From an uncultured Pseudomonadota bacterium (GTDB taxonomy: Bacteria > Pseudomonadota > Alphaproteobacteria > RF32 > CAG-239): a stretch of 64,000 bases of DNA. Positions 10,008-32,291 of the stretch are shown piece by piece. A program made the position numbers and the translations under genes. The number at the start of each line of letters is the position of its first letter. Within the stretch, counting starts at the first letter, position 1. Below the pieces are notes generated by a model, which saw only the letters and a list, made by a program, of their open reading frames with translations, did not search any database and had not been told where the DNA came from. The stretch is taken from contig CADCCF010000006.1 of NCBI GenBank assembly GCA_902799835.1, forward strand, positions 25,803-89,802, given 5' to 3'.

Positions 10008-10022
10008 TATATCGTCCAGTTC

Positions 10023-11614: not shown

Positions 11615-11615
11615 T

Positions 11616-12182: not shown

Positions 12183-12196
12183 TTTTAAAGCAACAA

Positions 12197-12596: not shown

Positions 12597-12727
12597 AATT
12601 GAAAAAATTTTGGGTTAATAAATGCGAATAATTTTTGTTGAATGAACGATAAAGCGTTTGGTTTGTTTTTGCAAGAATTTTTTTAGCAAATTTGCTTTTT
12701 TCTAAAAAATAACCGCATAAAATTTAA

Positions 12728-12756
12728 TTGATTTTTTAGACTCTTCTGAGTATGAT
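12728..12756 (+). promoter_or_regulatory. Candidate promoter for the pyrophosphatase gene (TTGATT, 17-nt spacer, TATGAT)
   Basis: The hexamers were read directly, about 90 nt upstream of the ATG at 12848. Confidence 0.35.
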
Positions 12757-12847
12757 TTTGGTCATAATATAGCGAATCGATAAACCGTGTTTTAAAGGTG
12801 CTTCGTGCTATGTTTGTATTTGTGTTTAAACTATTAAGGAATCTAAA

Positions 12848-15581: not shown

Positions 15582-16280
15582 ATGAAGAATAAGGATGGGG
15601 TATGGGAAGATGCACAAGCTCGTAAATTTTACAGAGAGCATGCTGATATTGAGATGAGGATAGCAAGTTGGATAACAAAATGCGGAGTTCCTGGCTGTAA
15701 TGCTTTAAGAGAGGAAGAGGTGGGTCTTTTTTGCGATTATATAAGAGAATGTGGTAAAGAATCAGAGTGTTTAGTTCTGGCTGAGAAGCTGATTGATAAG
15801 ATGATTGATTGTGATTATCCTGATCGCAAAGCTGTTTTGTTGGGGCTGGGAGAGTATGGATCTTTTCCTTGTGACGACAGAGAATTACTCAATAAAATTG
15901 AAAATGTTGTGAAAAGATGCGATAAAATGGATGAAGGGGCTATTTGCGCGGGAGTGAGCGCACTGAATAATATAGCTAGAAATACTACTTCATCAGCAAC
16001 AAAAAAGATGGTCGCTGAGGTGTTTAAAAGGAATTTTCGTGATGGTGCCGCTGTTGGCGATAATGATCCCAGATATGATATAAGTTTTTTGAATGGGAGT
16101 GAAGAAGGAAGAAAATTATTACAAAGTATGAAAAGTCTTTGTGAAGGTGGAAAAGCTACAGAATCAAATAGTAATAAATCAACTCGACCCGTACTACCAG
16201 AATCACATCAGCCACCTTTATTGAAACGTATTTTTGGGGGGAGGGATAAAGGAAGTAGTAAAAATGGTTTGAGTTTATAG
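15582..16280 (+). CDS. Orphan Cys-rich cytoplasmic protein, possibly HEAT-like repeats
   Basis: 232-aa ORF with a strong promoter and RBS and no signal peptide. It carries repeat-like segments (RKAVLLGLGEYG and AICAGVSALNNIA) and a Ser/Lys/Gly-rich tail. Confidence 0.6.
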   Translation: MKNKDGVWEDAQARKFYREHADIEMRIASWITKCGVPGCNALREEEVGLFCDYIRECGKESECLVLAEKLIDKMIDCDYPDRKAVLLGLGEYGSFPCDDRELLNKIENVVKRCDKMDEGAICAGVSALNNIARNTTSSATKKMVAEVFKRNFRDGAAVGDNDPRYDISFLNGSEEGRKLLQSMKSLCEGGKATESNSNKSTRPVLPESHQPPLLKRIFGGRDKGSSKNGLSL

Positions 16281-16511: not shown

Positions 16512-17096
16512 TTATTTAACTTTGGTTAGTAAGTGGGCTAAATGGACTTCGTTTTGAGCTTGGTTGATAATCGACATCGTTTTTTGCGGACTTTGGTTGC
16601 TCAAAGCTGAAATAGCGGTAACATACTCACCTTGTTGTCCCTTAGCGGCTTCAATTTTCAATTCACCATAGTTATAAAGTGCGAATCTGCGGGTTGCCAC
16701 AGCTTTTTTGATTTTTTGTAATTCGGCATGTTTAGTTGCAGGTTTTTCCATATCAATATAAACACCTTCGCGACTATATTGCCACATTCCTCCGGTTGCT
16801 ACATCGGTCAACCAACTGGGCCAGAAGGTCAAATTAAGAATTGATGCGGTGCTTAAAGATGATTTTAAGATTTGCTGTTGGTCTTCATAACCATCTTTTT
16901 TGGCAACGGCAACAACAGTTGACGATGAGCGGTCAATCGGATAAACGCAAGGAGTTTTACAGGCTTTTACACCATTGATGTAGATAGTTACACCTTTAAC
17001 ATTGGAATCAAAACTCATATCTTGGCTGGTTCCGTTAAAAATTGTTCCGCATGCGGTCAAAGCCAAAATCGAAACTAAAGCAATTTTTTTATTCAT
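16512..17096 (-). CDS. Lipoprotein, possibly with a PEGA-like beta domain
   Basis: Has a signal peptide with the lipobox ILALTAC. It then carries GVTIYINGVKACKTPCVYPIDRSSSTVVAVAKKDGYEDQQ. Confidence 0.6.
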   Translation of the reverse strand: MNKKIALVSILALTACGTIFNGTSQDMSFDSNVKGVTIYINGVKACKTPCVYPIDRSSSTVVAVAKKDGYEDQQQILKSSLSTASILNLTFWPSWLTDVATGGMWQYSREGVYIDMEKPATKHAELQKIKKAVATRRFALYNYGELKIEAAKGQQGEYVTAISALSNQSPQKTMSIINQAQNEVHLAHLLTKVK

Positions 17097-17437: not shown

Positions 17438-17465
17438 GTTGCAATAGGCCGGAAGGAATTTGCAA

Positions 17466-18239
17466 ATGAATAATGCGGAAAGAAAAGTTTTGGATGATTT
17501 TATGGGGCAAGCTGTCAATTGTGAGATTGTCAGCAATCTTGAATTGAATAATGAAGAAAAAAGATTGCTGAATCAGCTTAATCAATTTGCGGTTATGCAG
17601 GTGGAAGATGATGCGGAGGTTTTGCGTGATCCGCGGAAGATTTTTTATAAATCAGGCGAAGAGTTAAAAAAAGGGCTGGTCGGATTGTCATTGGCAGTTG
17701 CTTTGACCAAAAATTTTTCGCGTAAAGTATATACCAAGGAGTTTTTTGAAGATAATATAAAAATAGAACGCAACAAAAGCGGTAACATAATAATAAATTT
17801 CGGAGCTATGGGCAGAGAAGTACTAGATGGTGTTTTAAGCGAAAATTTGGTGTTTGAATGGATGTTGTACAGCGACAACAAAGGACGTGGTCTTATGGGA
17901 CTTGCCGATTACAAGGGTATTTATTTGGATGATGATATTAATTTCAGGCGTGGTGGTTCCCAAGTTTATGAGTTTGCCAGATTTCAACGTAAATGTTACC
18001 GATATTTTCGTGAAAAGACGCAGCATCAAAAAGATGATATGCAAGATGCATTTCGCAGAGTATTTGCTGAGGCAGCCGCCAAGCAGTTGACAGAGCAAAT
18101 TAATCCGGTTGAATTTACAGCCAAATTGTTTAGTAGCGATGATCCGGCAAAGGAAATTGAAAATATGTTAAAATCAATAGGGAATAGGATTGATTATCCA
18201 GAGATAGAATACAAAAATAATAAAAAAGGCTCAGATTAA
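17466..18239 (+). CDS. Orphan hypothetical protein
   Basis: The track ORF begins at TTG 17460. The ATG at 17466 is better placed after the RBS. It has no signal peptide, no TM helix and no motif I recognise. Confidence 0.55.
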   Translation: MNNAERKVLDDFMGQAVNCEIVSNLELNNEEKRLLNQLNQFAVMQVEDDAEVLRDPRKIFYKSGEELKKGLVGLSLAVALTKNFSRKVYTKEFFEDNIKIERNKSGNIIINFGAMGREVLDGVLSENLVFEWMLYSDNKGRGLMGLADYKGIYLDDDINFRRGGSQVYEFARFQRKCYRYFREKTQHQKDDMQDAFRRVFAEAAAKQLTEQINPVEFTAKLFSSDDPAKEIENMLKSIGNRIDYPEIEYKNNKKGSD

Positions 18240-19740: not shown

Positions 19741-19817
19741 TGGCGCCAGCGGCGGGACTCGAACCCACTACCCACAGTTTAGGAAACTGTTGCTCTATCC
19801 TGATGAGCTACGCCGGC
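19741..19817 (-). tRNA. tRNA-Arg (anticodon CCU), 77 nt with encoded CCA
   Basis: Folded by hand as GCCGGCG-TA-GCTC-ATCAGGATA-GAGC-A-ACAGT-TTCCTAA-ACTGT-GGGTA-GTGGG-TTCGAGT-CCCGC-CGCTGGC-G-CCA. All four stems pair, with one G-U each in the acceptor and T stems. Confidence 0.95.
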
Positions 19818-19842: not shown

Positions 19843-20955
19843 TTATTTTTTATTGCAAGCAAGATTTTGCAAAAACTGAATTTGAATTTCAGCCAATTTT
19901 TCAACTGAGGCGATATCAACATATTCGCCTGAGGCATGCATGCCTTCACCGGAGCCGGAGTGCATGATTACGGTTGAGCCGCGCACCGCAAATTCTCTAG
20001 CATCGGTAGCACCGCCTTCGTATTCAAATTTAAGTTTTTTACCCAAAATATTTTCCGCCAGTTTTTTATAAGCAACGATATGAGGATTTTTCTCATCCAT
20101 TACTACCGGAGTGCTGGAAGATACAATTTCATATTCCGCACCCTTAATCATGGCTTTATCCAAGTTTTTCTTTAAATCGGATAGTTTAGATGTTTCAACC
20201 AAGCGCACATCGCACAATGCCTCGCAATAATCCGAAATAATGTTGGCAACTTTACCACCCTCAATTTTAGCAACATGCAAAGTATCAATCCATTTGTTGC
20301 GCGGCTTCTTGCCATTCAAATCATAAGCCGGATAAAATTTACGAACATTATCCAATGTCTTAAACATCAGTTCATTAGCATCTACGCCATCCCAAGGCAG
20401 TGAACCATGAGCTTCTTTGCCGTGAGTTTTGATTTTTACAAATACGGGGTTTTTGCATTTAACAATCAATTTGGTTATATCGCCACCGACATCATTGTCT
20501 AAGACAACATTAGCTTTGATTTTAGCATATTTTTCCAAGAATGCTTTGGTGCCTTTAGAACCTTTTTCTTCATCGGATGAAAGGATTACGCCGAATTTTA
20601 AGGGTAATTTGTGCTCAATAACATATTGCATGGAGTTTAGGGCAACTGCGGCAAAAGATTTCATGTCTAATGAGCCACGACCATAAAGTTTACCCCCTTT
20701 TACAATCGGCTTAAACATTTTATCTTCAGCCGGAACTACATCAATATGACCTAAGATGAGAGCATCCAAGTCAAGAGAGTTTTTGTTGCGAATAAAAATA
20801 ACCGGAGCAGTATCTTTTTTGGTAAAAATATCAACCTTGGCACCAATCAATGTCATCATGTTTTTGATATAATTCATCGCCGCATTAATTTCTGTTGCAT
20901 TACCGGTTTCGGTGCGAAACTTCATCAGCTCTTGGGCTATTTCAATTATTTTCAT
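19843..20955 (-). CDS. M20-family metallopeptidase/deacylase (ArgE/DapE-like)
   Basis: Carries LILGHIDVVP, GRGSLDMK, SSDEEKGS and HGKEAHGS. Confidence 0.85.
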   Translation of the reverse strand: MKIIEIAQELMKFRTETGNATEINAAMNYIKNMMTLIGAKVDIFTKKDTAPVIFIRNKNSLDLDALILGHIDVVPAEDKMFKPIVKGGKLYGRGSLDMKSFAAVALNSMQYVIEHKLPLKFGVILSSDEEKGSKGTKAFLEKYAKIKANVVLDNDVGGDITKLIVKCKNPVFVKIKTHGKEAHGSLPWDGVDANELMFKTLDNVRKFYPAYDLNGKKPRNKWIDTLHVAKIEGGKVANIISDYCEALCDVRLVETSKLSDLKKNLDKAMIKGAEYEIVSSSTPVVMDEKNPHIVAYKKLAENILGKKLKFEYEGGATDAREFAVRGSTVIMHSGSGEGMHASGEYVDIASVEKLAEIQIQFLQNLACNKK

Positions 20956-21047: not shown

Positions 21048-21557
21048 ATGAAAAGAATTTTGCTCATTTTGATTATGTTAGTTGCTGCCGGAGTGTTGGT
21101 GGCAACCGCGAGTGAAAACAAATCAAAAAAATCGGATAGTAATTCTTTGCCGCGATTTGTATCATTGCGTTCGGATAAAGTTTATGCGCGTTTCGGTCCC
21201 GGAGTTAAATATCCGATAGAGTGGGTATATTCGCAAAAATCAGCTCCGGTCGAGGTGATTTCGGAGTATGAAGATTGGCGCCGCATCAGGGATTGGCAAG
21301 GCTCCGAAAGTTGGATTAAAGCGCAAATGTTAAATAATAAAAGGTTTGTAAAAGTGATAGCGGCCGGAGAGAATAACCTCTATGCCAAGGATAGTTATAA
21401 GTCGAAAATTATAGCTCGAGTTGAAGATGAGGTTATTGGTGAAATTAAGAAATGTCCGGCGGAAAATGGTTTTTGTTTGGTGCAATTTGCACAGTATCAG
21501 GGGTGGATGCCAAGACAAAGCCTTTTTGGTGTGTATCCTGATGAAATTATAGATTAA
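21048..21557 (+). CDS. Secreted SH3b-like domain protein (alphaproteobacterial DUF1058/COG3807 type)
   Basis: Has a signal peptide. It then carries LPRFVSLRSDKVYARFGPGVKYPIEWVY...EDWRRIRDWQGSESWI and a second SH3-like half. Confidence 0.75.
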   Translation: MKRILLILIMLVAAGVLVATASENKSKKSDSNSLPRFVSLRSDKVYARFGPGVKYPIEWVYSQKSAPVEVISEYEDWRRIRDWQGSESWIKAQMLNNKRFVKVIAAGENNLYAKDSYKSKIIARVEDEVIGEIKKCPAENGFCLVQFAQYQGWMPRQSLFGVYPDEIID

Positions 21558-21559: not shown

Positions 21560-23014
21560 CTAGTGAGCCAATTCAAATAAATTTAGCGGTAGGTCGTTAG
21601 TGAGGATTAGCGCGATAATCAGCCAGATGAGGGCATAAGTTTGCAGAGCGTTGCTGATAATTTTGTTTTGTAATGGTTTGATGTTTTTTTGTGCGCCATA
21701 TTTGAATAAACGATTTAGTCCGAATAACAAAAATATTAAAATTAAAAATTGAAAACCTAAACCAGTTTGAGATAAGATGTTACGTAAGGGTTGCAACATT
21801 TTATATGATAAGGTAAAAAAGGCCAGATAAACTATGAGTATTCCGCCGAAAACCAAACGCATTTTACTGTTTTGTTGGCGCATAATTTCTTTTTGTTTTT
21901 GGACTTCTTCGGTTTTCATTTGTTTAATTTCAATACCGCGCAGAGTTTCCGGTTCTTGTTTTTGTTTTTTCAACTCATCAATATTGTGGCGAAATTTGTT
22001 TTCAATCATACACAGACCGCAGCCTTTGGAAGTAAAATAAGCATGGTCGGGATTGTTGTGGCATTTTTTTAAGGAATGCATTATCTTCCAAAGATGTTCC
22101 TGCCATTCGAAAGCAGTAGGGCGTTGGCAATCTTTGCAAAAAGCGCGTTCGAATAATTCCAAGGTTTCTTTATTAAAATATTGGTGAATGCTATAGGGAT
22201 GCGGATACTGATACTCATCGGGCCAAAGACCATAGGCATAATGGTACTTGGTAATGCGTTCTTGGATGGTGAGCATGGGTGCATTTGGATTCTTCGGTGT
22301 GCCGGAAAAAGGGTGGATGCCATTGTTGAGTAAACGAAAGATTACTACAGCCAGAGCAAACAAATCTTGTTGTTCGCCCATTTCGGCACAGCTCAAATTC
22401 ATACCTTCGGGATAAATGTACTCTTCCGAGACAAATTCGGCCGGATATTTGGTGTTGTTTCCGGAAATTGAGAAACCATCACAATCAACGATTGCTACCA
22501 ACATATTTTCTTTATATACGTAAATATTGGAAGGTTTTAAATCAACGACGTAGTGTCCGCATTTGTGAAGAGCATTAATCATCAAGGCAACATTGTAAGC
22601 CGCAAAGACACGATAAGCATAATTCTCGGATAAACCCAAACGATGCCGTACAGCTTTTTGCATAAGATGGTCGAGTGAGACAGCTTTGTTCATATCAATA
22701 AGCGGCATGATATAGCCAGCACAAAATCCGCGCTCATCATCAAGCAAGGCTTCCGGCCAAGCAATTTGAATAAAATCTTGATCATTGACTTTGGTTGACA
22801 AGAAGTCGGGTTTGTTTAATAACATAGCCTGAAGTTTTTGGCGGTTGGTTGAAGATTTTTTGGTATCGTGAAATATTTTGGCGACGTAACCCGGTTTGTT
22901 TTCTATCAGATAAATTTTGCCGGAAGCTCCTCCTTTATTTATTATTTTTCCTAAGGTTATCTTGTCATAGGAGCCATCGGCATAAACTGCATTAAAGGTT
23001 TGTTTTTCTTCCAT
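21560..23014 (-). CDS. Ser/Thr protein kinase with C-terminal zinc-ribbon-like motif, coiled coil and three TM helices (kinase of a TerY-P-type triad)
   Basis: Has the Gly-loop and Lys (GGASGKIYLIENKPGYVAKIF), the catalytic loop HYVVDLKPSN, and DCDGF. After the kinase core come CHNNPDHAYFTSKGCGLC, a K/E/Q-rich stretch and three hydrophobic helices. It starts 1 nt after the PP2C stop. Confidence 0.85.
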   Translation of the reverse strand: MEEKQTFNAVYADGSYDKITLGKIINKGGASGKIYLIENKPGYVAKIFHDTKKSSTNRQKLQAMLLNKPDFLSTKVNDQDFIQIAWPEALLDDERGFCAGYIMPLIDMNKAVSLDHLMQKAVRHRLGLSENYAYRVFAAYNVALMINALHKCGHYVVDLKPSNIYVYKENMLVAIVDCDGFSISGNNTKYPAEFVSEEYIYPEGMNLSCAEMGEQQDLFALAVVIFRLLNNGIHPFSGTPKNPNAPMLTIQERITKYHYAYGLWPDEYQYPHPYSIHQYFNKETLELFERAFCKDCQRPTAFEWQEHLWKIMHSLKKCHNNPDHAYFTSKGCGLCMIENKFRHNIDELKKQKQEPETLRGIEIKQMKTEEVQKQKEIMRQQNSKMRLVFGGILIVYLAFFTLSYKMLQPLRNILSQTGLGFQFLILIFLLFGLNRLFKYGAQKNIKPLQNKIISNALQTYALIWLIIALILTNDLPLNLFELAH

Positions 23015-23015
23015 C

Positions 23016-23759
23016 TCAGGCCACCTTTATCCACACAAGAGTTTTGTCATCAGGATTGAGTTTTTGAGCGCGCGGAGTGTTGAGAGTGTTGCTTAGGGCG
23101 CGAGTTGCTTTAAGACGATTGGGTTCAGATAGTAAAAATTCGTTAATCGGAGTGATAAATTTGGTTTCAATGTTTTGAAAATCCGGTTGAAAAGCAAAAG
23201 GAGTGACACCATCAGACATTAAGAACATTACCTCGGGTTGTAAAAAACGGGTGAAACGCAAGTTGGCTTTCCAATAAGATTGTGTGAAGAAAAAAGTTTC
23301 ACAAGAAAAATTGCCATTCTCGGGACGGGAAAGACGAAACTCGTTGTTAGAGTGGAGTGACAAAGCGGCGCCGTCACCAATATGAAAGAATATACCTTTG
23401 CCTTGATGATAAACAACTCCAACCAAAGTTGCAGCAAAATCGTCAAGACCATTTTCGTTTTTGGTGAAGTTGAAGCGGTGGATTACTAACTGTTGACGTG
23501 CGGCAGATATGGCGTTTTTTATCTCGGATTCAATATGATCGAAAGCTACATTTTTAAGTATATCGCAGAGGGTTGAACATAATATTCGGGCGCCAATTTT
23601 GCCGTATTTGGCAGATCCGGCACCGTCCGACAGTACGGCAATCAAATTTTTGCCATAGGCATATTGATAGTAATCTTGACAAGGCAAGCCACAACTGCGG
23701 TGGGCGGCGCCAACAACTTTAGCGGCAATAATTTTGTAAGCACTTTTGTTATTCATCAT
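23016..23759 (-). CDS. PP2C-family protein phosphatase
   Basis: Carries CQDYYQY, AVLSDGAGSAKYG, HIGDGA and LMSDGV. I place the start at the ATGATG (23759/23756) that overlaps the vWA stop. The longer track ORF to 23867 would overlap the vWA gene by 119 nt. Confidence 0.85.
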   Translation of the reverse strand: MMNNKSAYKIIAAKVVGAAHRSCGLPCQDYYQYAYGKNLIAVLSDGAGSAKYGKIGARILCSTLCDILKNVAFDHIESEIKNAISAARQQLVIHRFNFTKNENGLDDFAATLVGVVYHQGKGIFFHIGDGAALSLHSNNEFRLSRPENGNFSCETFFFTQSYWKANLRFTRFLQPEVMFLMSDGVTPFAFQPDFQNIETKFITPINEFLLSEPNRLKATRALSNTLNTPRAQKLNPDDKTLVWIKVA

Positions 23760-24432
23760 CCCAATCGCCGGTATTGTCAAACAGTTCGGGGGCATTGGGC
23801 GCGGCGCGAGAAATGCAAGAAACGCTACGACTAAGCCATAAGAAAAATTCGGTAAAACGAAGGCCACTTAAGCGTTTTGGCGAATTGGTTGAAAACAGCG
23901 CCAGTTTGTCAAGGTTGGCTCCCTGAGTTCCAACGGCATGGATTACAACCTTTTTCTTGTTTTGGGCATCACGGCATTTGGCAGCAATAATTTCCCAATC
24001 ATAATCAGTCGGTTCACCATCACTGATAAGGAATATCCATGGACGTTTTGAAGTTATGCCACAGCTGTCATAAAGACATTTTTGGGCTTCAATTTTGGCT
24101 AAAGCCATATCCATAGCTTTGCCTAAAGGTGTTAGACCGCCGGCTTCCATGGTGGGAGCTTCAAAATTCATCGCATCAGTCCAATCGGTTGAAACGACGG
24201 CCTCGTCCTTACCAAAAGCTTTGATAATCAGCAGTTGAACACGTGATGAGGCATCGATATCCTCTTTGAGCTCTTGCTCCAAAGCTTTTAAGCCGGCATT
24301 AAGCTGTTTGATGGGTTCCCCACGCATGGAGCCGGAGCAATCCAGAACTAAAACGCAGGGAGTTCGCTCGTTGGCATTGTCAGCGAACTCAACATAAGGT
24401 ATCATTTCATTATCAGTGATATTTTCAACCAT
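23749..24432 (-). CDS. vWA-domain protein of the TerY/YegL type
   Basis: Carries the MIDAS motif CVLVLDCSGSM, plus GGLTPLGKAM, RPWIFLISDGEPTD and a C-terminal FTEFFLWLSRSVS. Confidence 0.88.
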   Translation of the reverse strand: MVENITDNEMIPYVEFADNANERTPCVLVLDCSGSMRGEPIKQLNAGLKALEQELKEDIDASSRVQLLIIKAFGKDEAVVSTDWTDAMNFEAPTMEAGGLTPLGKAMDMALAKIEAQKCLYDSCGITSKRPWIFLISDGEPTDYDWEIIAAKCRDAQNKKKVVIHAVGTQGANLDKLALFSTNSPKRLSGLRFTEFFLWLSRSVSCISRAAPNAPELFDNTGDWDDE

Positions 24433-24449
24433 GATTAATCTCGCTAAAA

Positions 24450-24575
24450 TTATTTTTCATAAGGGTATGTGTGAGGGTAGCCGCTGTCGGGATAAGGCGA
24501 CGGGCGTGCCGACTTGCCACAGGCCGATGTCAGCAGTGACAAAGACAAACAAACTAAAATAAATATTTTTTTCAT
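24450..24575 (-). CDS. Unlisted 41-aa lipoprotein ORF heading the vWA-PP2C-kinase operon
   Basis: My translation reads MKKIFILVCLSLSLLTSACGKSARPSPYPDSGYPHTYPYEK. The lipobox is LLTSAC. The RBS AAGGAA lies 7 nt upstream of the ATG. The stop lies 17 nt before the vWA start. Confidence 0.45.
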   Translation of the reverse strand: MKKIFILVCLSLSLLTSACGKSARPSPYPDSGYPHTYPYEK

Positions 24576-24645
24576 ATACAATTCCTTTACTTATTTCATA
24601 TATACTACAATTATAAAAAATAAAAGTTGATGTTAATTTTAAGTT

Positions 24646-25176
24646 ATGCAAAAGAAAATGATGAAAAAGTTTTTAGGCGGTTTGGCTTTGGTTTTTGTTT
24701 TTATGAGCATGGCTCAAGCCAGTATCAATATTTTTGCTTATTCGCGCGAAGCTCCGGTTACGAAAATTTATGATTCATACGGGAGATCGGCCAGTTTGCA
24801 AGATTTTGGTGATGATTTTATAATTGCGGTTTTTTGGTCAAAGACCTGTATTCCTTGTTTGCGGGAAATGCGAGATTTGAATGCTTTTTCCAATAAAGTT
24901 AAAGATAATGGGGTTAAGGTTATTATAATTTCGTCGGAAAAAGATTGGTATAGTCGCGAAGAGCAAGTTGAGTTGTTGCGTAAATACGGCGGCGAAGATT
25001 TGGATTTTTATGTGGATAGAAATTCGGCTTTAGCCAACGAATTCGGTATTTTTACATCGCCACATGCAGTTTTGATTGATACTCATAATATGGAAATCGG
25101 GCGAATCCGCGGCGCGGTTGATTGGGATGACAGCGATGTGGAAGAATATATATACAAGCTAAAAGCGCAAAATTAA
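24646..25176 (+). CDS. Periplasmic thioredoxin-fold thiol:disulfide oxidoreductase (TlpA/ResA-like)
   Basis: Has a signal peptide and the CxxC active site in FWSKTCIPCLREM. Confidence 0.8.
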   Translation: MQKKMMKKFLGGLALVFVFMSMAQASINIFAYSREAPVTKIYDSYGRSASLQDFGDDFIIAVFWSKTCIPCLREMRDLNAFSNKVKDNGVKVIIISSEKDWYSREEQVELLRKYGGEDLDFYVDRNSALANEFGIFTSPHAVLIDTHNMEIGRIRGAVDWDDSDVEEYIYKLKAQN

Positions 25177-25180
25177 TTTT

Positions 25181-26995
25181 TTGATAAATGGAACGATTGT
25201 TGTGGTTAATGCAAAAAAGGTAAAAAAGAAGACAACAAAACGCAGAACTAAACGCACGAAAAAGCATTTCAGTTTGTGGAAGGTGTTTTTGTTGGGGGGA
25301 CTGGTAGCGTTTTTGCTGGTGAGCGCTTATGTTGCTTGGTGCGCTTATACAATGCCGGATATCAACCAAGCAATCAATCGTACTCGCCAACCTTCGACAA
25401 CCCTGATTGCAGAAAATGGTAATGAAATCCACTCTTTCGGGGCAGTCTATTCCGAAATTGTAAAGGCGCGCGATTTGCCCAAACATGTCACAGATGCGGT
25501 TGTATATACGGAAGATAGGCGATTTTATCAGCATCATGGGTTTGATGTTATATCTTTTGCCAGAGCGATGCTGGCTAATTTGTTTGCCGGAAGATATGCT
25601 CAAGGAGGTTCGACCATAACTCAACAAGTGGCAAAGAATCTGTTTTTAACGAATCAAAAAACGGTGTCACGCAAAGTGCAAGAGTTGTTGTTGGCATTTT
25701 GGTTGGAGTATAAATTTACCAAAGAGCAAATTTTATCATTGTATCTGAACAGAGTTTATTTTGGTAACGGAGCTTATGGAATCGAGGCAGCCGCGAATCG
25801 TTATTTTCAAAAAAATTCAGGCGATTTGAACGTGTTGGAAGGAGCTATATTGGCCGGAATGTTAAAAGCCCCGTCCCGCTACAATCCGATTGCCTCCAAA
25901 GAAAGAGCCATGGAAAGAGCTAAAGTAGTTTTGGGAATTCTGCGCGATAACGGCAAACTTAATGATAAAGGTTATAATCAGGCACTCAGGTTGCCGGTCG
26001 GTCGGGAAAAACCGCCCAAGGTTAAGAACGGATTGTATTTTGCCGATGCGGCTTATGCGGAAGTTTTGGAAATTTTGGGAGAGCCGCAAAGCGATATTTA
26101 TGCAATGACAACTTTAGATCAGGAATTGCAAGAAAAAGCTTCAAGTATTTTGCAGAAGAATATTGCTGAAGCGAAAAAAAATAACGTCAATCAGGGTGCT
26201 GTTGTTATTATGGATAAAGATGGTGCAATTAAGGCGATGGTTGGAGGAGTTTCGTATAGCAAAAGCCAGTTTAACAGAGCAATTCAGGCATTACGTCAGC
26301 CGGGGTCGTCTTTTAAGACCATTGTTTATTTGACAGCGGCTGAGAATGGGATGACCGCTAAAGATATGGTTGAGGATAAGCCTATAAATATTAAAGGGTG
26401 GAAGCCGGAGAATCATGATAAAAAATATTATGGTGAAGTTACAACACGTTTTGCTTTTGCTCATTCACTGAATTTGGCGACACTTGATTTAGCGCAAAAA
26501 ACCGGAGTGGGCAAAATCAGAAAAATGGCCAAAAAGTTGGGCATAACTACGCCTATAAGCAAAGATTTGTCGATAGCTTTAGGCAGTTCGGCAGTTAAGG
26601 TGATTGATATGGCGTCAGCTTATGCGGTTATTGCCAATGGTGGCTATGCGGTTTGGCCGCACATGGTTGAAGAAATTTATTCTAATGAAGGATATCAACT
26701 TTATCAGAGAGAACCGGTCGAAAAACAGCGAATCGTCGGTGAAGAAGCAGTGATTGTCATGAAAAAGCTAATGCGAGAGGTATTTAAAACCGGCACGGGA
26801 AGATTTGCCAGAATCGATCGGGAAGCTTTTGGTAAGACCGGTACTTCACAGGATAATCGCGATGCTTGGTTTATTGGTTTTGATGATGAGTTGATTACGG
26901 CGGTTTGGGTAGGAAATGACGATAATTCTCCGATGAAGGGAGTTTATGGTTCGGGACTGCCGGCTAAGATATGGCAGCAAATTATGCGCAAATAA
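25181..26995 (+). CDS. Class A penicillin-binding protein (glycosyltransferase GT51 plus transpeptidase)
   Basis: Carries EDRRFYQHHGFD, GGSTITQQVAKN, RKVQELLLAFWLE, the SxxK motif (GSSFKT), the SxN motif (SLN) and KTGTS. The start codon is uncertain: TTG 25181 or a nearby GTG. Confidence 0.9.
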   Translation: MINGTIVVVNAKKVKKKTTKRRTKRTKKHFSLWKVFLLGGLVAFLLVSAYVAWCAYTMPDINQAINRTRQPSTTLIAENGNEIHSFGAVYSEIVKARDLPKHVTDAVVYTEDRRFYQHHGFDVISFARAMLANLFAGRYAQGGSTITQQVAKNLFLTNQKTVSRKVQELLLAFWLEYKFTKEQILSLYLNRVYFGNGAYGIEAAANRYFQKNSGDLNVLEGAILAGMLKAPSRYNPIASKERAMERAKVVLGILRDNGKLNDKGYNQALRLPVGREKPPKVKNGLYFADAAYAEVLEILGEPQSDIYAMTTLDQELQEKASSILQKNIAEAKKNNVNQGAVVIMDKDGAIKAMVGGVSYSKSQFNRAIQALRQPGSSFKTIVYLTAAENGMTAKDMVEDKPINIKGWKPENHDKKYYGEVTTRFAFAHSLNLATLDLAQKTGVGKIRKMAKKLGITTPISKDLSIALGSSAVKVIDMASAYAVIANGGYAVWPHMVEEIYSNEGYQLYQREPVEKQRIVGEEAVIVMKKLMREVFKTGTGRFARIDREAFGKTGTSQDNRDAWFIGFDDELITAVWVGNDDNSPMKGVYGSGLPAKIWQQIMRK

Positions 26996-27072: not shown

Positions 27073-28605
27073 ATGAAACAAAAACCTGTAATGTTATTGA
27101 TATTGGACGGGTGGGGTTATCGTGAAAAAATCACACTGGATAATGCAATTGAAAATGGTAATACACCAAACTGGCATAAATTACTAGAAACTTATCCGCA
27201 CGGATTTGTTGAAACATCAGGTTTAGCAGTAGGTTTGCCGGAAGGACAAATGGGTAATTCCGAAGTTGGACACACCAATTTAGGTGCCGGAAGAGTGGTT
27301 ATGCAAGATTTGCCAAAGATAGATGCCAGTATAAAAGATGGGAGTTTGGCTAAAAGAGAGGTGTTGCAAAACTTGATCGCTAAACTAAAAGCTAATGGCG
27401 GAGTTTGTCATTTGATGGGCTTGATGTCACCGGGCGGGGTGCACTCGGAGCAAAGTCATATGGTGGCATTAGCAAAAATTTTGGCGGCGTCCGGGGTGAA
27501 GGTTGCGGTTCATGCTTTTACTGACGGGCGCGATACACCGCCGGCTTCGGGAGCAGAATTCGTGGCCGAATTCGAAAAAGATGTTGCCGGATTAAAAGAG
27601 GTTAAAATCGCAACGGTTTGTGGCCGATATTATGCCATGGATCGTGATAAGCGCTGGGATAGAGTTGAAAAGGCCTACAATGCAATAGCTTTGGCGCAAG
27701 GTGAAAAATATGCCAATGCAACAGCAGCAATAAAAGCATCTTATGCGCAAGGAGTTACGGACGAATTTATAGTTCCTTGTGTGATTGGTGACTATAAAGG
27801 AATTGAAGATGGTGATGCTGTGTTGATGGCTAACTTCAGAGCTGATCGGGCACGGGAAATTTTGTATGCTTTAGGGGATAAAGATTTTAACTGTTTTGCC
27901 AGACAAAAGGTTTTGAAATTGTCATCTTGTGTCGGAATGACGGAATATTCGGTTGATCATCAGAGATTTATGCAAACAATCTTCCCGCCTGAGCAACTGA
28001 CAAATATTTTGGGCGAAGTTGTATCGCAAAACGGCTTGACCCAACTCAGAATTGCCGAAACAGAAAAATACGCCCATGTGACTTTCTTTTTCAATGGCGG
28101 TGAAGAACGTAAATTTGATGGAGAGGAGCGTATTTTGATTCCTTCACCGAAAGTTGCAACTTATGATTTGAAGCCGGAAATGAGCGTCTATGAAATTACA
28201 GAACAGTTGGTAGCAGCAATCGAAAATCAAAGATTTGATATGATAATTTGCAATTTTGCAAATGGCGATATGGTAGGACATACCGGTATTATGGAGGCAG
28301 CTTTGAAGGCAGTTGCCGCAGTTGATGATTGTTTGGGTAAAGTTGTAGCGGCAATCAAAAAAGTTGGCGGTGTTTTGTTGGTTACGGCTGACCATGGTAA
28401 TGTTGAAAAAATGGTTGATGAAAAAACCGGCCAACCCTATACAGCTCACACTGTCGGAAAAGTACAGTTGGTGCTGGTTAATGACATGAGCGGTGTTAAA
28501 AAATTACATGATGGTTGCTTGGCCGATGTAGCACCTACGATGTTGGAATTGATGGGGCTGCAACAGCCCAAAGAAATGACGGGAAAATCTTTGTTGGAAA
28601 AGTGA
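27073..28605 (+). CDS. gpmI: 2,3-bisphosphoglycerate-independent phosphoglycerate mutase
   Basis: Carries LLILDGWG, GNSEVGHTNLGAGR, FTDGRDTPP and TADHGN. Confidence 0.95.
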   Translation: MKQKPVMLLILDGWGYREKITLDNAIENGNTPNWHKLLETYPHGFVETSGLAVGLPEGQMGNSEVGHTNLGAGRVVMQDLPKIDASIKDGSLAKREVLQNLIAKLKANGGVCHLMGLMSPGGVHSEQSHMVALAKILAASGVKVAVHAFTDGRDTPPASGAEFVAEFEKDVAGLKEVKIATVCGRYYAMDRDKRWDRVEKAYNAIALAQGEKYANATAAIKASYAQGVTDEFIVPCVIGDYKGIEDGDAVLMANFRADRAREILYALGDKDFNCFARQKVLKLSSCVGMTEYSVDHQRFMQTIFPPEQLTNILGEVVSQNGLTQLRIAETEKYAHVTFFFNGGEERKFDGEERILIPSPKVATYDLKPEMSVYEITEQLVAAIENQRFDMIICNFANGDMVGHTGIMEAALKAVAAVDDCLGKVVAAIKKVGGVLLVTADHGNVEKMVDEKTGQPYTAHTVGKVQLVLVNDMSGVKKLHDGCLADVAPTMLELMGLQQPKEMTGKSLLEK

Positions 28606-28608
28606 CTT

Positions 28609-29793
28609 ATGAACTGTAAATCGGCAATTAAGACAATAGTCATGGTAATGTGCGGTGTTGTATGGTTAAGCAATACCGCTAATGCTGAGACTGTTTCAAA
28701 AGCTGATTTGCGAAAAGTTGAAGAACAGGCCAAGCAACAAAGTATAGAACACCAAAAGCTTCAGGAACAGGCCGAAATTATCGGTCAAGAACTTAACAAA
28801 GTTAATAAGGAGATGATATCGGCAGCCCGCGCTATTCAAAATAGCGAAGAAAAATTATCAAAAATGGAAAAGCAATTAGAATTATTGCAGGAAGATTTGG
28901 ATGACACTGAAGCCAAATTTAACAGAGAGGACGCTAATTTAATCAAAACCTTGTCGGCAGTGCAGAACTTGGCAATGCGCCCGACAGAATCGCTGTTGGT
29001 TCAACCGCTATCGCCGGTTGATATTATTCGTAGTGCAATTGTTTTGCGTGAGGCCGTTCCTTATTTGGAAGATAATGCACAAACTATCAGGAAACACTTT
29101 GTTGAAGTTAGTGAGAAAAAAAAGAAAATCGAAAAACAGTTGTTTGAAATTGAAAAACAAAAAAACACTATGCAAAAAGAGCATAATCGGATGAAGAAAT
29201 TGGCTAACGCCAAGGCCGCTTTGAAAAGCAGGGTGGAAGTAAAAAGTGAACAAACTCGCAAAAATATAGACAAGTTGGTTAATCAGGCAAAAGATATTAA
29301 AGATTTGTTGCAAAAGATAGAAAATCAACGAGCAAAAAGAAAATTAGAGGAAAAACAATCTGCTGACTTGATTAAATCGCCACATGATTCTATAAATAAT
29401 ATAGCTAGCGGTTTTGCCAAAGCAAAGGGAAGTTTACCGCTTCCGGTGCGTGGTAACATCATTTCGCAATATGGCGACCAACAAAACAAAGGTGTTTCCA
29501 GTAAGGGATTGACGGTAGCAACTCGTTTGGGAGCTCAGGTTATTTCACCTTTTGATGGAACGGTTGTTTTTGCCGGACCTTTTCGGAGCTATGGTGATAT
29601 GATTATTGTCGAACATGACGGTGGATATTTATCGTTGTTGGCCGGATTGGGTAGTATAGATGTTGAAGTCGGACAAATGCTGTTGGCCGGTGAACCGATA
29701 GGAAGGATGCCTGAAAGTTCTAAGGCTGAATTATATGTGGAAATTCGCAAAAATAATCAGCCGATTAATCCGGCTGCATGGTTTAAAATTTAA
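28609..29793 (+). CDS. Coiled-coil M23/LytM-domain protein, EnvC-like murein hydrolase activator
   Basis: Has a signal peptide and a long coiled coil. The C-terminal LytM fold (FDGTVVFAGPFRSYGDMIIVEHDGGYLSLLAGL ... LYVEIR) has several canonical His positions replaced. Confidence 0.8.
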   Translation: MNCKSAIKTIVMVMCGVVWLSNTANAETVSKADLRKVEEQAKQQSIEHQKLQEQAEIIGQELNKVNKEMISAARAIQNSEEKLSKMEKQLELLQEDLDDTEAKFNREDANLIKTLSAVQNLAMRPTESLLVQPLSPVDIIRSAIVLREAVPYLEDNAQTIRKHFVEVSEKKKKIEKQLFEIEKQKNTMQKEHNRMKKLANAKAALKSRVEVKSEQTRKNIDKLVNQAKDIKDLLQKIENQRAKRKLEEKQSADLIKSPHDSINNIASGFAKAKGSLPLPVRGNIISQYGDQQNKGVSSKGLTVATRLGAQVISPFDGTVVFAGPFRSYGDMIIVEHDGGYLSLLAGLGSIDVEVGQMLLAGEPIGRMPESSKAELYVEIRKNNQPINPAAWFKI

Positions 29794-29810
29794 GGTATGA
29801 GGATTTTAAA

Positions 29811-31103
29811 ATGTTGAAAAAATTTTGGTTGATTGGTGTGGTGTTTTCGATGATGTTGGTACAGAACGGAATGGCGAAAACTGAGACAAAAGAAAAGCCG
29901 GCCAATACCTATGAATTGCTGAATCTGTTTGGCGAGGTGATGGAGCGTACTAAGGCAACCTATGTCGAAGAAGTGTCTGATCAGAAATTAATAGAGGCGG
30001 CAATTAACGGGATGCTTACTTCACTTGATCCTCATTCCAGCTATTTAGATGCTAAAGATTTTAAATATATGAATGAACAAACATCAGGAAAGTTTGGCGG
30101 GTTAGGTATAGAAATAACCATGGAACAAGGTGTGGTTAAAATTGTTTCGCCGATTGATGACACGCCGGCATATCGTGCCGGTTTGAAACCGGGGGATTAT
30201 ATTACCAATATTGACGGTGAAACTATTATAGGTATGACCTTGAACGAGGCTGTTGATAAGATGCGTGGCAAACCGGGAACAAAAGTTAAATTAACTATTC
30301 GCCGAGTTAACGAAAAACCATTTGATGTTACTTTAAAGCGGGAAGAGATAAAAACTCAATCCGTTAAAAGTGAGCTGAAGGATGAAAATGTTTTGTATGT
30401 GCGTTTAGGATCGTTTTCAGAAGATGTAGATAAAGATATTGAAAAAGCCTATAACAAAGCGATGAAGGAAACTAAAAATGAATTAAAAGGTCTGGTTTTG
30501 GATGTTCGCAATAACCCCGGGGGACTGTTGGATCAGGCAGTGGCTGTATCAAGTTTGTTTTTGGATAAAGGTGAAGTTGTTTCGACAAGAGCTCGCAATG
30601 AGGAAGATACACTGCGTTATTCGGCCAAAGGCAAGGATATAACTAACGGTTTGCCGATTGTCGTCTTGATTAATAACGGTTCAGCTTCGGCATCGGAAAT
30701 TGTAGCGGGGGCGTTGCAGGATCATAAGCGTGCGGTGGTTTTAGGCGAAAAATCTTTTGGTAAAGGAAGTGTGCAAACAGTAGTGCCTTTGGGAGATTAT
30801 GGTGCTATGAGAGTTACCACGGCAAGATATTATACTCCGTCCGGAAGATCTATTCAGGCTACCGGTATTGAGCCTGATGTGGTAGTTCATCCGGCAAAAT
30901 TGGAAGAATTTTCTGATGAGTATGGGTTTAGCGAAGCTGAGTATACCAACGCATTGAAAAATGAGACCATACAAGACGAAAAAAAGAAAAATGATAAAAA
31001 AGATGACAATGAAGATGATAATAATTCTTGGCGTAGAGATTATCAGCTGTTGAGAGCGGTTGATTTGGTAAAAGCACTTAATGTTTACAAAGCTGCTAAA
31101 TAA
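29811..31103 (+). CDS. ctpA: Carboxy-terminal processing protease (S41)
   Basis: Has a PDZ region (GGLGIEI), plus DVRNNPGG, NNGSASASEIVAGALQD and GKGSVQT. Confidence 0.9.
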   Translation: MLKKFWLIGVVFSMMLVQNGMAKTETKEKPANTYELLNLFGEVMERTKATYVEEVSDQKLIEAAINGMLTSLDPHSSYLDAKDFKYMNEQTSGKFGGLGIEITMEQGVVKIVSPIDDTPAYRAGLKPGDYITNIDGETIIGMTLNEAVDKMRGKPGTKVKLTIRRVNEKPFDVTLKREEIKTQSVKSELKDENVLYVRLGSFSEDVDKDIEKAYNKAMKETKNELKGLVLDVRNNPGGLLDQAVAVSSLFLDKGEVVSTRARNEEDTLRYSAKGKDITNGLPIVVLINNGSASASEIVAGALQDHKRAVVLGEKSFGKGSVQTVVPLGDYGAMRVTTARYYTPSGRSIQATGIEPDVVVHPAKLEEFSDEYGFSEAEYTNALKNETIQDEKKKNDKKDDNEDDNNSWRRDYQLLRAVDLVKALNVYKAAK

Positions 31104-31112
31104 GGTTGGAAC

Positions 31113-32291
31113 ATGGCGAAGAATTTAGAAAGATATGATAAGCTGGTTATTGTCGGATGCCTGATTGCGGTATTGGTTTTGGGTGTTGGTTATTGGTTTG
31201 CGCAAGAAAAAAGCGAACCGGTATATCTTTCAAAAATTGACCGTTTGATGTTTGATAAGAATAATAAGTCTCCGGCTTATATTTTAACTTTACCTGACAA
31301 AATAGAAATATCTTCGCAAACGCAAGATACGGCAGATGGCACTTCTGATAAGCAGAATATTGTGAAAAATGAAGTTTCTGAAAGTGAAGGTTTTTCATTG
31401 GAAAGCTTAATAGGAAATGTTCCTAATATAGGAAAATTACCTAATAAAAGCGGATTTGTGCCGATGAAAAATGTCGGAATTTTGCCTGAGTTGGTTGAGA
31501 TTAGAGAAGATGGCACTAGTTTGCCCAAAAAAGGGAATGAGGGGCGTAGGGCTTGGATTGAATATGGTAATAATATCAATACATTGCCAAACTTTAAAAA
31601 AATTGCCGTAGTAATAGGTAACTTAGGCTTTGATAGCATGGTGGTTAATAAGGTAGCTTCGGCTTTTTCTTCGGGTTTATCAATGAGCTTTCATCCTTAT
31701 ATGACGCATGGCGTTGATAACATTTCGAGCGCCAGACAAAAAGGGCATGAAACATATATGGATGTATTGCTGGCATCAAAAGATTTTTTAAGGGAAGATA
31801 CCGGCCCGTTGGCGCTGAATTTTGATTTGAATAAAGAAGAATTGTTGACAAGATTACACAAGATTTTGTTTAAACAAGCGCCTATCGGTGGGATTATTAT
31901 TCGAGATGGCGCAATATCATCAGATAAGCAAGAATTGGTCAAATCGCTTTTAGAAGAGGTTAGAGATAGGGGGTTGTTGATGATAGACGCAACATCGTCG
32001 GATGTTATAAATACCATAAAGATCGACTCTTTACCAAGACGACGCGCTGATATCGTTATTAATAAAGATATGACGTCTGAAAGGATTGATGATGAGATAA
32101 AAAAGGCAGAAAATATTGCCTTTGATAAAGGTCAGGTTTTGATTGTTGCTGATGATAAGCCTTTAATAATTGTGAAATTGGCACAATGGATAGATACTTT
32201 TTCTCCGCAGTTGTCATATGAAGAAGCAAAAACTGTCGATATAACAAAGCCGTTTGCTTTAGTGCCGGTCTCTAATTTGGTGGTTGAGTAA
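31113..32291 (+). CDS. Divergent polysaccharide deacetylase (YibQ)-like protein
   Basis: Has an N-terminal TM helix. It follows ctpA, as in many alphaproteobacteria. It carries family-like blocks (IAVVIGNLGFD and LLMIDATSS). Several positions I remember as conserved acidic or His residues look substituted. Confidence 0.6.
   Translation: MAKNLERYDKLVIVGCLIAVLVLGVGYWFAQEKSEPVYLSKIDRLMFDKNNKSPAYILTLPDKIEISSQTQDTADGTSDKQNIVKNEVSESEGFSLESLIGNVPNIGKLPNKSGFVPMKNVGILPELVEIREDGTSLPKKGNEGRRAWIEYGNNINTLPNFKKIAVVIGNLGFDSMVVNKVASAFSSGLSMSFHPYMTHGVDNISSARQKGHETYMDVLLASKDFLREDTGPLALNFDLNKEELLTRLHKILFKQAPIGGIIIRDGAISSDKQELVKSLLEEVRDRGLLMIDATSSDVINTIKIDSLPRRRADIVINKDMTSERIDDEIKKAENIAFDKGQVLIVADDKPLIIVKLAQWIDTFSPQLSYEEAKTVDITKPFALVPVSNLVVE

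Follow-up and report, generated by a model that had tools for sequence, protein, structure and literature searches.

We analysed a 64-kb stretch of DNA (64,000 nucleotides, hereafter the window) from contig CADCCF010000006.1 of an uncultured alphaproteobacterium, and describe a locus of four genes at positions 21560 to 24575. All four genes lie on the minus strand, in the order lipoprotein, von Willebrand factor A (vWA) protein, PP2C-type phosphatase and Ser/Thr kinase (STK), and are separated by a 17-nt gap, an 11-nt overlap and a 1-nt gap, respectively. The first-pass annotation of this DNA had described four tightly packed, co-directional genes; its coordinates were right, and every motif that it had quoted from the vWA protein and the kinase was found in the sequence. 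In the profile searches that it had proposed as a check, the three larger products matched Pfam VWA (E=1e-5), PP2C_2 (E=6e-36) and Pkinase (E=9e-14). The same four genes recurred in 80 related genomes. These were the best 80 of 201 species genomes, ranked by vWA similarity, in a survey in which one genome per species was scanned for close homologues of the vWA protein. The vWA and PP2C genes were present in 80/80 loci, and the lipoprotein and kinase genes in every locus that extended far enough. Hundreds of close relatives of the vWA protein were found, all of them in uncultured gut and rumen Alphaproteobacteria. The top match among the 201 species was the rumen metagenome-assembled genome (MAG) RUG10873 (99%); other carriers included CAG-495 and Candidatus Scatocola (Rhodospirillales per NCBI).

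At the first junction, the lipoprotein TAA is followed by 17 bases and then by the vWA start at 24432. The 3' end of the vWA gene reads …GAT TGG GAT GAT GAA TAA at 23749, and the embedded ATGATG (23759) starts the PP2C gene, whose TGA (23018-23016) is followed, one base on, by the kinase ATG at 23014. At its 3' end, the kinase gene (stop at 21560) comes within 2 nt of the stop of an SH3_4 gene in convergent orientation. Across the 80 loci, the lipoprotein-vWA spacing ranged from -1 to 26 nt and the PP2C-kinase spacing from -8 to +17 nt, while the overlap of the vWA and PP2C genes was kept in all relatives (8-26 nt). There is no room for a separate promoter between the lipoprotein and vWA genes, because their spacing was this short in 80/80 loci. 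Overall, the tight junctions suggest translational coupling. A longer phosphatase open reading frame (ORF) of 283 aa with a GTG start (23016-23867, minus strand) was rejected as an over-extension into the vWA gene, because all relatives start PP2C at the ATG overlapping the vWA stop.

Upstream of the lipoprotein gene, a divergent intergenic region of 70 nt (24576..24645) separates it from a gene for a thioredoxin-fold protein (redoxin) and contains the strong ribosome-binding site (RBS) GTAAAGGAAT. To judge from the layout, this region is the sole plausible promoter region of a four-gene operon. The lipoprotein ATG is preceded by the Shine-Dalgarno sequence AAAGGA, 8 nt upstream. When the 100 nt upstream of the lipoprotein gene were aligned across related loci, the RBS was near-invariant and TTAAC…N17…TAT(T/A)AT-like boxes were conserved, with an uncertain -35/-10 assignment for the window sequence itself. 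In a promoter consensus scan, promoter-like sites were not enriched over shuffled sequences inside the operon, and the exact promoter was not placed by the scan; a terminator scan revealed no internal terminator-like site. The layout clearly marks the four genes as a single predicted transcription unit, which could start only within the 70 nt ahead of the lipoprotein gene.

The first gene (24450..24575, minus strand; ATG at 24575, stop ending at 24450) encodes a 41-aa prolipoprotein, MKKIFILVCLSLSLLTSACGKSARPSPYPDSGYPHTYPYEK. The ORF list also gave a 43-aa version starting at a TTG at 24581. The N-terminus, MKK-IFILVCLSLSLL-TSA-C, comprises a signal peptide (aa 1-18) and a lipobox ending in Cys19, with Gly at position +2. 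With its basic N-terminus, hydrophobic core and lipobox, the product is predicted to be a signal peptidase II substrate. The lipobox was well conserved among 81 sequences, with L/V/I at -3 in 76/81, A/G/S at -1 in 81/81, Cys at +1 in 81/81 and Gly at +2 in 81/81. The mature peptide has 23 aa in the window, and 22 aa was the commonest length among relatives. It exhibits the motif CGK-x3-P-x-P-x3-(S)GYPH-x-YP (short form CGK…GSGYPHxYP), and C19, G20, Y33, P34, Y37 and P38 were invariant among relatives. Moreover, the invariant Cys, Gly, Tyr, Pro and His residues were encoded by 2-4 synonymous codons across genomes. The codons therefore vary synonymously at invariant residues, which indicates selection at the protein level and a real gene.

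This gene was found upstream of vWA in 80/80 related genomes. To describe the triad beyond the clade, we used an outgroup set of 8 triads: the three closest multi-transmembrane metagenome relatives, a triad linked to a type VI secretion system (T6SS), a CBASS-linked Hyphomicrobiales triad, a Sel1-kinase triad, and those of Azospirillum and E. coli. No ORF with a lipobox was present within 400 nt upstream of vWA in 8/8 outgroup triads. In the three closest ones, just 86-110 nt were available upstream of vWA, with no redoxin gene there. The association of the lipoprotein and the redoxin with the triad thus appears to be an acquisition of the gut clade, since both are absent from the outgroups. 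The lipoprotein matched no Pfam family. A profile search retrieved 325 homologues of 40-51 aa, and those named in their source were all called 'hypothetical protein'. An identity with LptM (YifL) was considered and rejected: the LptM_cons profile, which covers a CG-x-KGPL-x-x-P region, was matched by just 8/30 members, the LptM_cons/LPAM_1 similarities were weak (best E=0.026), and the window sequence gave no match; this similarity is probably due to chance or driven by the lipobox. In the literature searched, no paper named TerY, a lipoprotein and PP2C together. Overall, the added lipoprotein partner proposed in the first-pass annotation proved genuine and conserved in the clade (80/80, against 0/8 outgroup triads), and comparison of gene neighbourhoods identifies it as a putative, previously unnamed, clade-specific partner gene.

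The second gene (23749..24432, minus strand) encodes a 227-aa, predicted cytoplasmic, stand-alone vWA protein of the YegL/TerY type. Its metal ion-dependent adhesion site, or MIDAS, is complete, with D31, S33, S35, T101 and D138; the DCSGS motif occupies aa 31-35, and aa 130-143 read RPWIFLISDGEPTD. A MIDAS usually serves protein-ligand binding by way of a bound cation and is not as a rule a metal sensor. The C-terminal FFLWLSRSVS lies at aa 196-205 (nt 23818-23847). We aligned the window vWA protein with YegL, a homologue from Azospirillum and TerY1-3, the three paralogues encoded in a Klebsiella ter locus (L083). The MIDAS residues, together with W199, S203 and S208, were invariant in the alignment with YegL and TerY1-3, and a C-terminal motif F-x-W-[LVMI]-S-x-S-x4-S was common to all these proteins. 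Identity was about 41-44% to E. coli YegL (E=3e-47) and 27-31% to the ter-operon proteins TerY1-3. The alignment places the window vWA protein in the YegL-like subgroup, characterized by an N-terminal extension and a C-terminal G-W tail, and outside the TerY1-3 subgroup. The AlphaFold2 model (pLDDT 78) was a classical Rossmann-type vWA domain whose last helix (192-205) bears FFLWLSRSVS and is followed by a disordered tail. A PDB sequence search with this protein returned nothing relevant. A Foldseek search with the model retrieved vWA domains of integrins and anthrax receptors (ANTXR), as well as ArnB in the ArnA-ArnB complex (8s05).

The third gene (23016..23759, minus strand) encodes a 247-aa PP2C-type Ser/Thr phosphatase of the PphC/YegK type, which is 25% identical to E. 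coli PphC over its full length (E=1e-14). Its SDGAGS motif holds D44, aligned to the catalytic D46 of PphC. The fourth gene (21560..23014, minus strand) encodes a 484-aa Hanks-type Ser/Thr kinase of the YegI type, with 29% identity to YegI over 334 residues (E=6e-31) in an alignment that spans the Cys/His element. The kinase domain (aa ~18-312, nt 22079-22963) is cytoplasmic according to the predicted topology and carries the catalytic motifs VAKIF (K46), VVDLKPSN (D158, K160, N163) and DCDGF (D177, D179), with DCD (aa 177-179) aligned to the DSD of YegI. The catalytic residues of the kinase and of the phosphatase are clearly intact, as judged from these alignments. The kinase domain is followed by a zinc ribbon of the CHCC type (aa 318-335, nt 22010-22063). 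The first-pass annotation was right about the existence of this element and misread its ligands, which are C318, H324, C332 and C335 rather than an adjacent 'CH'. K46, D158, D177, D179, C318, C332 and C335 were invariant, and H324 was conserved in at least 90% of the sequences. A PDB sequence search with the kinase returned generic eukaryotic kinases only, with E values of about 1e-3.

Beyond the zinc ribbon, the kinase continues with a helical, charged linker (about aa 336-383) and ends in three predicted transmembrane (TM) helices (aa 384-480, nt 21575-21865), as had been proposed. The hydropathy profile revealed hydrophobic segments at 384-407, 412-441 and 452-480. The AlphaFold2 model (pLDDT 86) comprised a bilobed kinase, two short hairpins (316-326), a helix (333-353), a flexible hinge and, past the hinge, helices at 368-401, 403-417, 419-442 and 451-472, in agreement with the hydropathy profile. 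Within the clade, the catalytic domain and the zinc ribbon were strongly conserved, the linker and TM helices much less. Near-invariant positions of the TM region were few, namely Y396, Q422, Y460 and N473, the last of which is part of a C-terminal NDLP motif.

To place this C-terminus within the kinase family, we performed an exhaustive HMMER search of 1.84 billion representatives, which yielded 6985 matches and 662 representative clusters at E<=1e-30. Relatives outside the clade's own cluster aligned over residues ~5-345 only, i.e., the kinase domain and the zinc ribbon, and had variable C-termini. Among 142 representative relatives, each of at least 400 aa, the knuckle C-x5-7-H-x-H-F-x3-C-G-x-C was present in 142/142. 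At least one TM-like segment followed the zinc ribbon in 124/142; in 103/142 there was a single helix and then 37-739 more residues, and just 8/142 exhibited at least three TM-like segments. The C-terminal modules of sampled relatives included ankyrin, Sel1 and SH3 repeats. For example, an SH3-like domain is fused C-terminally to the Azospirillum kinase homologue (L082 7501-9339), and the relative P0263 carries an SH3_3 domain. E. coli YegI has been shown by experiment to be a two-TM inner-membrane kinase, Mn2+-preferring and autophosphorylating, in which DSD is essential in place of DFG (10.1101/819920), and it is dephosphorylated by PphC (10.1101/819920; 10.1101/303594). Membrane anchoring is thus the rule in this family, since 124/142 relatives bear TM-like segments and YegI has two TM helices; the 'membrane-tethered variant' of the first-pass annotation is not a distinguishing trait. 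The unusual trait of the window kinase is rather its bare end, a predicted three-helix bundle with no extracytoplasmic domain.

Upstream of the 70-nt region, on the plus strand, lies the redoxin gene (24646..25176), which encodes a 176-aa secreted TlpA/ResA-like thioredoxin-fold protein (Pfam Redoxin, AhpC-TSA, Thioredoxin_8) with the CxxC motif C-I-P-C. A 191-aa ORF (25052-25627, minus strand) running antisense across the junction between this gene and the next was considered an artefact. The redoxin gene adjoined the operon in 79/79 loci that extended far enough, despite changing outer flanks, and it was not found beside the three closest outgroup triads. As an invariant neighbour in the clade, the redoxin is a possible functional partner. 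Beyond its stop (25176) and a gap of 4 nt, an ORF for a PBP1A-type transglycosylase/transpeptidase begins with TTG (25176-25181). In the subclade of the window, the redoxin and PBP1A genes may be co-transcribed because of this 4-nt spacing.

Both outer flanks varied among the 80 loci. Upstream, the block was bordered either by gpt and a cluster resembling type IV pilus or type II secretion (T2SS) genes (53 loci) or, in the subclade of the window, by PBP1A and iPGM. Downstream, it was bordered either by a co-directional 462-aa FMN-oxidoreductase-like gene (54 loci) or by a convergent SH3/M20-peptidase pair (20 loci, including the window). With both outer flanks rearranged, the redoxin gene and the lipoprotein-vWA-PP2C-STK operon therefore form a five-gene block that survives rearrangement. 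The pilus/T2SS-like cluster of the relatives lies ~2-6 genes upstream and comprises several prepilin-like genes as well as PilT-, PilB/GspE- and PilC/GspF-like genes, while the 462-aa gene, which resembles FMN oxidoreductases and nitronate monooxygenases, lies 2-130 nt past the kinase. No homologue of the pilus-like cluster, of gpt or of the 462-aa gene was found within the 64-kb window.

Mean pairwise identities were determined for 12 neighbourhood families in 81 genomes. The vWA protein was at the top, with 0.89, a figure somewhat biased upward because the loci were picked by vWA similarity. The other families included the PilB-like ATPase (0.83), the kinase (0.69), the M20 peptidase (0.68), PP2C (0.61), the lipoprotein (0.52) and the redoxin (0.51). 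The 8 outgroup triads ranked alike, with vWA more conserved than the kinase and the kinase more than PP2C, and the outgroup vWA proteins retained the WLSRS…S…AP…GW tail.

The neighbours of the operon in the window encode H+-PPase, acetate kinase (ackA), the M20 peptidase, the SH3 protein, the redoxin, PBP1A, iPGM, M23 and S41 peptidases and a NUDIX protein, an ordinary set of core-metabolism and cell-envelope functions. We scanned the neighbours from about 12.8 to 34.7 kb of the window for defence and mobile genes and found no integrase or defence gene among them, in line with the description of the locus in the first-pass annotation as embedded among core genes. The block appears from these comparisons to be inherited largely vertically, as a stable core gene set rather than a mobile anti-phage island. 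Database records that would have pointed to a phage origin, namely 'Bacteriophage sp.' MT836238.1 (L092), MT839721.1 and the viral contig IMGVR_UViG_3300024268_003428 (L091), were rejected as misfiled bacterial fragments. They look misclassified because they carry the same bacterial chromosomal block, with M20 peptidase, SH3, PilT-like, redoxin, lipoprotein, vWA, PP2C, kinase and FMN-oxidoreductase-like genes.

Several further features were observed around the locus. The gene for the secreted SH3_4-domain protein (21048-21557, plus strand) is convergent to the kinase gene, and the M20 peptidase gene lies at 19843-20955 (minus strand); in related genomes these two genes always occurred together and adjoined the operon in only 20/80. 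A tRNA-Arg gene (anticodon CCT; 19741-19817, minus strand) is located between the acetate kinase and M20 peptidase genes, with no adjacent integrase or repeat noticed. On the other side, positions 27073-32291 hold a conserved envelope cluster of iPGM, M23 (EnvC-like) peptidase, S41 (CtpA-like) protease and a divergent polysaccharide deacetylase. Nearby ORFs at 15582-16280 (plus), 16512-17096 (minus), 17460-18239 (plus), 32763-33317 (plus) and 33319-34680 (minus), encoding products of 184-453 aa, had no Pfam match at E<=1e-5.

Among the outgroup triads, two were found in distinctive surroundings. L088, a large genome contig, carries at 4506-14874 a vWA-PP2C-kinase(ankyrin) triad with a second ankyrin-kinase ahead of it, and this triad is immediately upstream of the T6SS genes VipA, VipB, Hcp, gp25-like/TssE, TssF and TssG. 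This gene order suggests that some triads of the YegI-type kinase family regulate T6SS. In L089 (1703-14160), a Hyphomicrobiales MAG, the triad contains an extra 851-aa gene (sll0997_C domain) between PP2C and the kinase and adjoins a CBASS operon (SMODS, E2-CBASS, patatin) and a serine recombinase, i.e., a defence-island context. Because the triad occurs in core-genome, T6SS-linked and CBASS-linked contexts, not every vWA-PP2C-kinase triad should be taken for a phage defence system.

Overall, the locus is probably a chromosomal, vertically inherited Ser/Thr phospho-switch of the YegL-PphC-YegI type in a Rhodospirillales-like gut or rumen alphaproteobacterium, acting as a housekeeping or stress-signalling element rather than as a mobile defence island. 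From the E. coli orthologues, the kinase would be an inner-membrane protein whose catalytic domain and zinc ribbon are cytoplasmic; it would autophosphorylate via its unusual DxD loop and would be reset by the PP2C phosphatase. Conservation, together with an analogy to the archaeal ArnA/ArnB/ArnC proteins, suggests that the cytoplasmic vWA protein is both the docking partner and the phospho-substrate of the kinase. The zinc ribbon would probably hold the vWA protein, and phosphorylation would probably take place on the Ser-rich C-terminal W-L-S-R-S-V-S, after which the MIDAS may bind or release a conserved cellular target. This target is argued to be a core component, because the conservation of the vWA protein is extreme. 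More speculatively, the lipopeptide (~22 residues) and the periplasmic TlpA-like redoxin may supply an envelope-side input that the kinase cannot sense alone, since the clade kinase lacks the extracytoplasmic domain that most relatives carry fused. In its fullest form, which we consider doubtful, the lipopeptide would be the detachable extracytoplasmic sensor of a 'split' receptor kinase, replacing the fused sensor of the relatives; it would act on a redox or metal cue handled by the redoxin, and the kinase would toggle the vWA/MIDAS on its core target.

Several points weigh against this interpretation. That the vWA protein is phosphorylated and docks on the zinc ribbon is proposed solely by analogy; moreover, ArnB bears an extra beta-sandwich and a helical bundle holding the phospho-threonines, which the window vWA protein lacks. 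A specific contact between lipoprotein and kinase is made less likely by the TM region, which is poorly conserved and has few near-invariant positions facing the periplasm. The lipoprotein and the redoxin arrive together in the clade, and the data would fit a lipoprotein working with the triad, with the redoxin or with neither. In addition, core status was read from the best 80/201 loci, and selecting these by vWA similarity inflates vWA identity somewhat. Finally, a defence role retains some probability because related triads adjoin CBASS and a recombinase (L089) or T6SS (L088), and a TerY-P-like triad has been found to defend its host (PMC7699616).

Among the other explanations, the one that we regard as a real, albeit minority, possibility is that the triad acts as other YegL-PphC-YegI modules do, and that the lipoprotein and the redoxin are unrelated envelope genes sharing its promoter region, with no split sensor. 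The closest outgroup triads do without both genes, the TM and loop regions of the kinase are weakly conserved, the faint LptM_cons/LPAM similarity of the lipoprotein (best E=0.026) would fit an independent envelope role, and the PBP1A gene tightly trails the redoxin gene in the window; nevertheless, the short lipoprotein-vWA spacing leaves no room for a separate promoter in 80/80 loci and the five-gene block outlasts rearrangements on both sides. Moreover, the clade kinases are among the few relatives without an extracytoplasmic domain, and their input would be unexplained unless a partner supplied it. It is unlikely that the locus is a TerY-P anti-phage system in which infection is sensed, the kinase fires and phosphorylated host or phage proteins block replication or abort infection, as the first-pass annotation implied when it singled out the locus as a candidate conflict or stress-signalling system. 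None of the housekeeping genes nearby evolves as slowly as the vWA protein, the opposite of an arms-race pattern. In 80 related species the operon keeps a constant place among core genes, and the scanned neighbours include no integrase, other defence gene or effector nuclease. This conservation, largely that of a vertically inherited housekeeping module, is what the annotation itself had named as an argument against a conflict role, and the 'phage' database matches were misfiled bacterial fragments. The locus does share its domain triad with a system active against T7-like phages (PMC7699616; PMC11090510), has kinase relatives beside CBASS and a recombinase in a Hyphomicrobiales genome (L089) and weakly matches the defence kinases PD-T4-6, MkoA and PglW, and both CoCoNuT/McrBC restriction loci (PMC11090510) and a genomic island of H. 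pylori (PMC4978471) contain TerY-P triads; on the other hand, the PADLOC TerY score of its vWA protein (12.8 bits) only equals that of E. coli YegL, its PP2C is unmatched, and the Gao-type defence kinase ends in an OB fold, not in a zinc ribbon and TM helices (PMC11090510).

Regulation of a secretion or pilus machine, after the PpkA-PppA pair of the Pseudomonas H1-T6SS with its TagQ lipoprotein, seems very unlikely. No pilus-gene homologue was found in the 64-kb window, nor any T6SS or FHA gene among the neighbours scanned, and the vWA protein of the window is encoded on its own and is cytoplasmic instead of forming a periplasmic part of the kinase. This idea would draw on the related triad directly upstream of T6SS genes in L088, on the ArnAB vWA switch, which governs a type-IV-pilus-like organelle (PMC12852372), and on the pilus/T2SS-like cluster, which lies two to six genes upstream in 53/80 clade genomes but has gpt and the redoxin gene between it and the operon and has been lost nearby in the subclade of the window. 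Equally unlikely is a stress sensor of the metal or tellurite type, as in Ter systems, with a MIDAS that senses metal and a phosphorylation that tunes the response. The window vWA protein is a homologue of TerY from ter operons, in which a PP2C and a kinase are also encoded (L083), but its identity to TerY1-3 (27-31%) falls short of that to YegL (41-44%), and no TerD, TerB, TerC, TerZ or biosynthetic ter-associated gene was found among the scanned neighbours. Although the MIDAS is intact, the original TerY-P hypothesis, as summarised in PMC11090510, was that of a metal-sensing phosphorylation switch, and the TlpA-like redoxin alongside might have a part in copper or redox handling, the usual role of a MIDAS in protein-ligand binding argues against metal sensing.

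TerY-P/YegL-PphC-YegI triads are widespread and are core in E. coli, and the family of kinases with a zinc ribbon alone comprises 662 representative clusters at E<=1e-30. This lineage offers several handles on such triads. Its unusually constrained vWA protein suggests both a conserved target in the cell and WLSRSVS as a candidate phospho-motif; its kinase is stripped of any sensor domain; and its conserved mini-lipoprotein and redoxin nominate an envelope-side input that is directly testable. If the lipopeptide does act as a separate sensor of the kinase, this would be the first defined input for any TerY-P/YegLKI-type triad.

We compared the locus with known systems that combine the same domains. 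The TerY-P triad, for which the account of Anantharaman 2012 is taken here as relayed by PMC11090510 and PMC4978471, is summarised in the former as a TerY-like vWA protein, a PP2C phosphatase and a kinase with a C-terminal zinc ribbon. All of these are present in the window, i.e., a vWA protein with a MIDAS, a neighbouring PP2C and a kinase with a zinc ribbon. The frequent, non-obligatory linkage of TerY-P with ter genes, restriction or DNA-processing modules or WXG100/FtsK secretion genes was not found among the scanned neighbours. The ter-locus triads share with the window the vWA MIDAS and the C-terminal F-x-W-x-S-x-S motif. They differ in that TerY occurs as three paralogues, one of which bears a TerY-C metal-binding domain, the PP2C has 578 aa and the kinase is soluble. 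They are located among TerD/TerA and biosynthetic genes on conjugative plasmids, whereas the window has a single copy on the chromosome, without linkage to ter or restriction genes. Identity between the window proteins and those of the ter locus was just 21-31%.

The TerY-P system of Gao et al. 2020 (PADLOC 'TerY') has the same logic of vWA protein, PP2C and Ser/Thr kinase, and a TerY-P-like triad protected against T7-like phages (PMC7699616). Its kinase bears a C-terminal OB fold instead of a zinc ribbon (PMC11090510), in contrast to the zinc ribbon, linker and three TM helices of the window kinase. It is a defence system, whereas the window locus lacks a defence-island context. The PADLOC TerY model matched the window vWA protein with 12.8 bits (E=0.015), which is no better than E. 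coli YegL, no PADLOC model matched the PP2C at E<=10, and the kinase gave weak matches to generic defence kinases. An NCBIfam scan returned no informative equivalog. On these matches and domain architectures, the window locus is placed in a branch other than the PADLOC/Gao defence subtype.

In Sulfolobus, a zinc-ribbon domain docks on the vWA protein ArnB; a Hanks-type kinase phosphorylates the C-terminal region of ArnB, and a phosphatase resets it (PMC12852372). This offers a precedent, grounded in experiments, for a switch built from a zinc ribbon, a kinase, a phosphatase and a vWA protein. The Arn system (ArnA/ArnB, kinases ArnC/ArnD, phosphatase PP2A) resembles the window locus in its cytoplasmic vWA/MIDAS, Hanks-type kinase, phosphatase and zinc ribbon. 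Its zinc ribbon is located on a separate FHA protein, ArnA, whereas that of the window is on the kinase; the phosphatase families differ, and apart from the vWA fold the two systems share no detectable sequence homology.

The window and the PpkA-PppA-TagQRST threonine-phosphorylation pathway of P. aeruginosa have in common a Hanks kinase in the membrane, a PP2C, a vWA domain and a lipoprotein. In that pathway, the upstream lipoprotein TagQ conditions activation of the kinase from the envelope side. The vWA domain of PpkA is periplasmic and fused to the kinase, the output of the pathway is the FHA protein of the T6SS, and TagQ is a much larger lipoprotein. In the window, the vWA protein is separate and cytoplasmic, the lipoprotein is unrelated to TagQ in sequence, and no T6SS genes are nearby.

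The first-pass annotation had likened the locus to E. coli yegL-yegK-yegI, and this likeness was borne out, with all three proteins matching their E. coli counterparts (E=3e-47, 1e-14 and 6e-31) and the zinc ribbon present. E. coli YegL-PphC (YegK)-YegI comprises the same three proteins in the same order (vWA-PP2C-STK), encoded by overlapping or abutting genes, and YegI shares with the window kinase a D-x-D in place of DFG, a kinase domain that is followed by a Cys/His zinc ribbon, and helices in the membrane, which are predicted for the window kinase. The E. coli locus has neither an upstream lipoprotein gene nor an adjacent redoxin gene, unlike the window. Moreover, YegI (648 aa) combines two TM helices with a C-terminal region that is long and cytoplasmic, whereas the window kinase (484 aa) has three TM helices and no tail, and it retains the catalytic-loop Asn (VVDLKPSN) that YegI lacks. 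Like the window block in its clade, yegL-pphC belongs to the core gene set, being present in 5415/5426 complete E. coli genomes.

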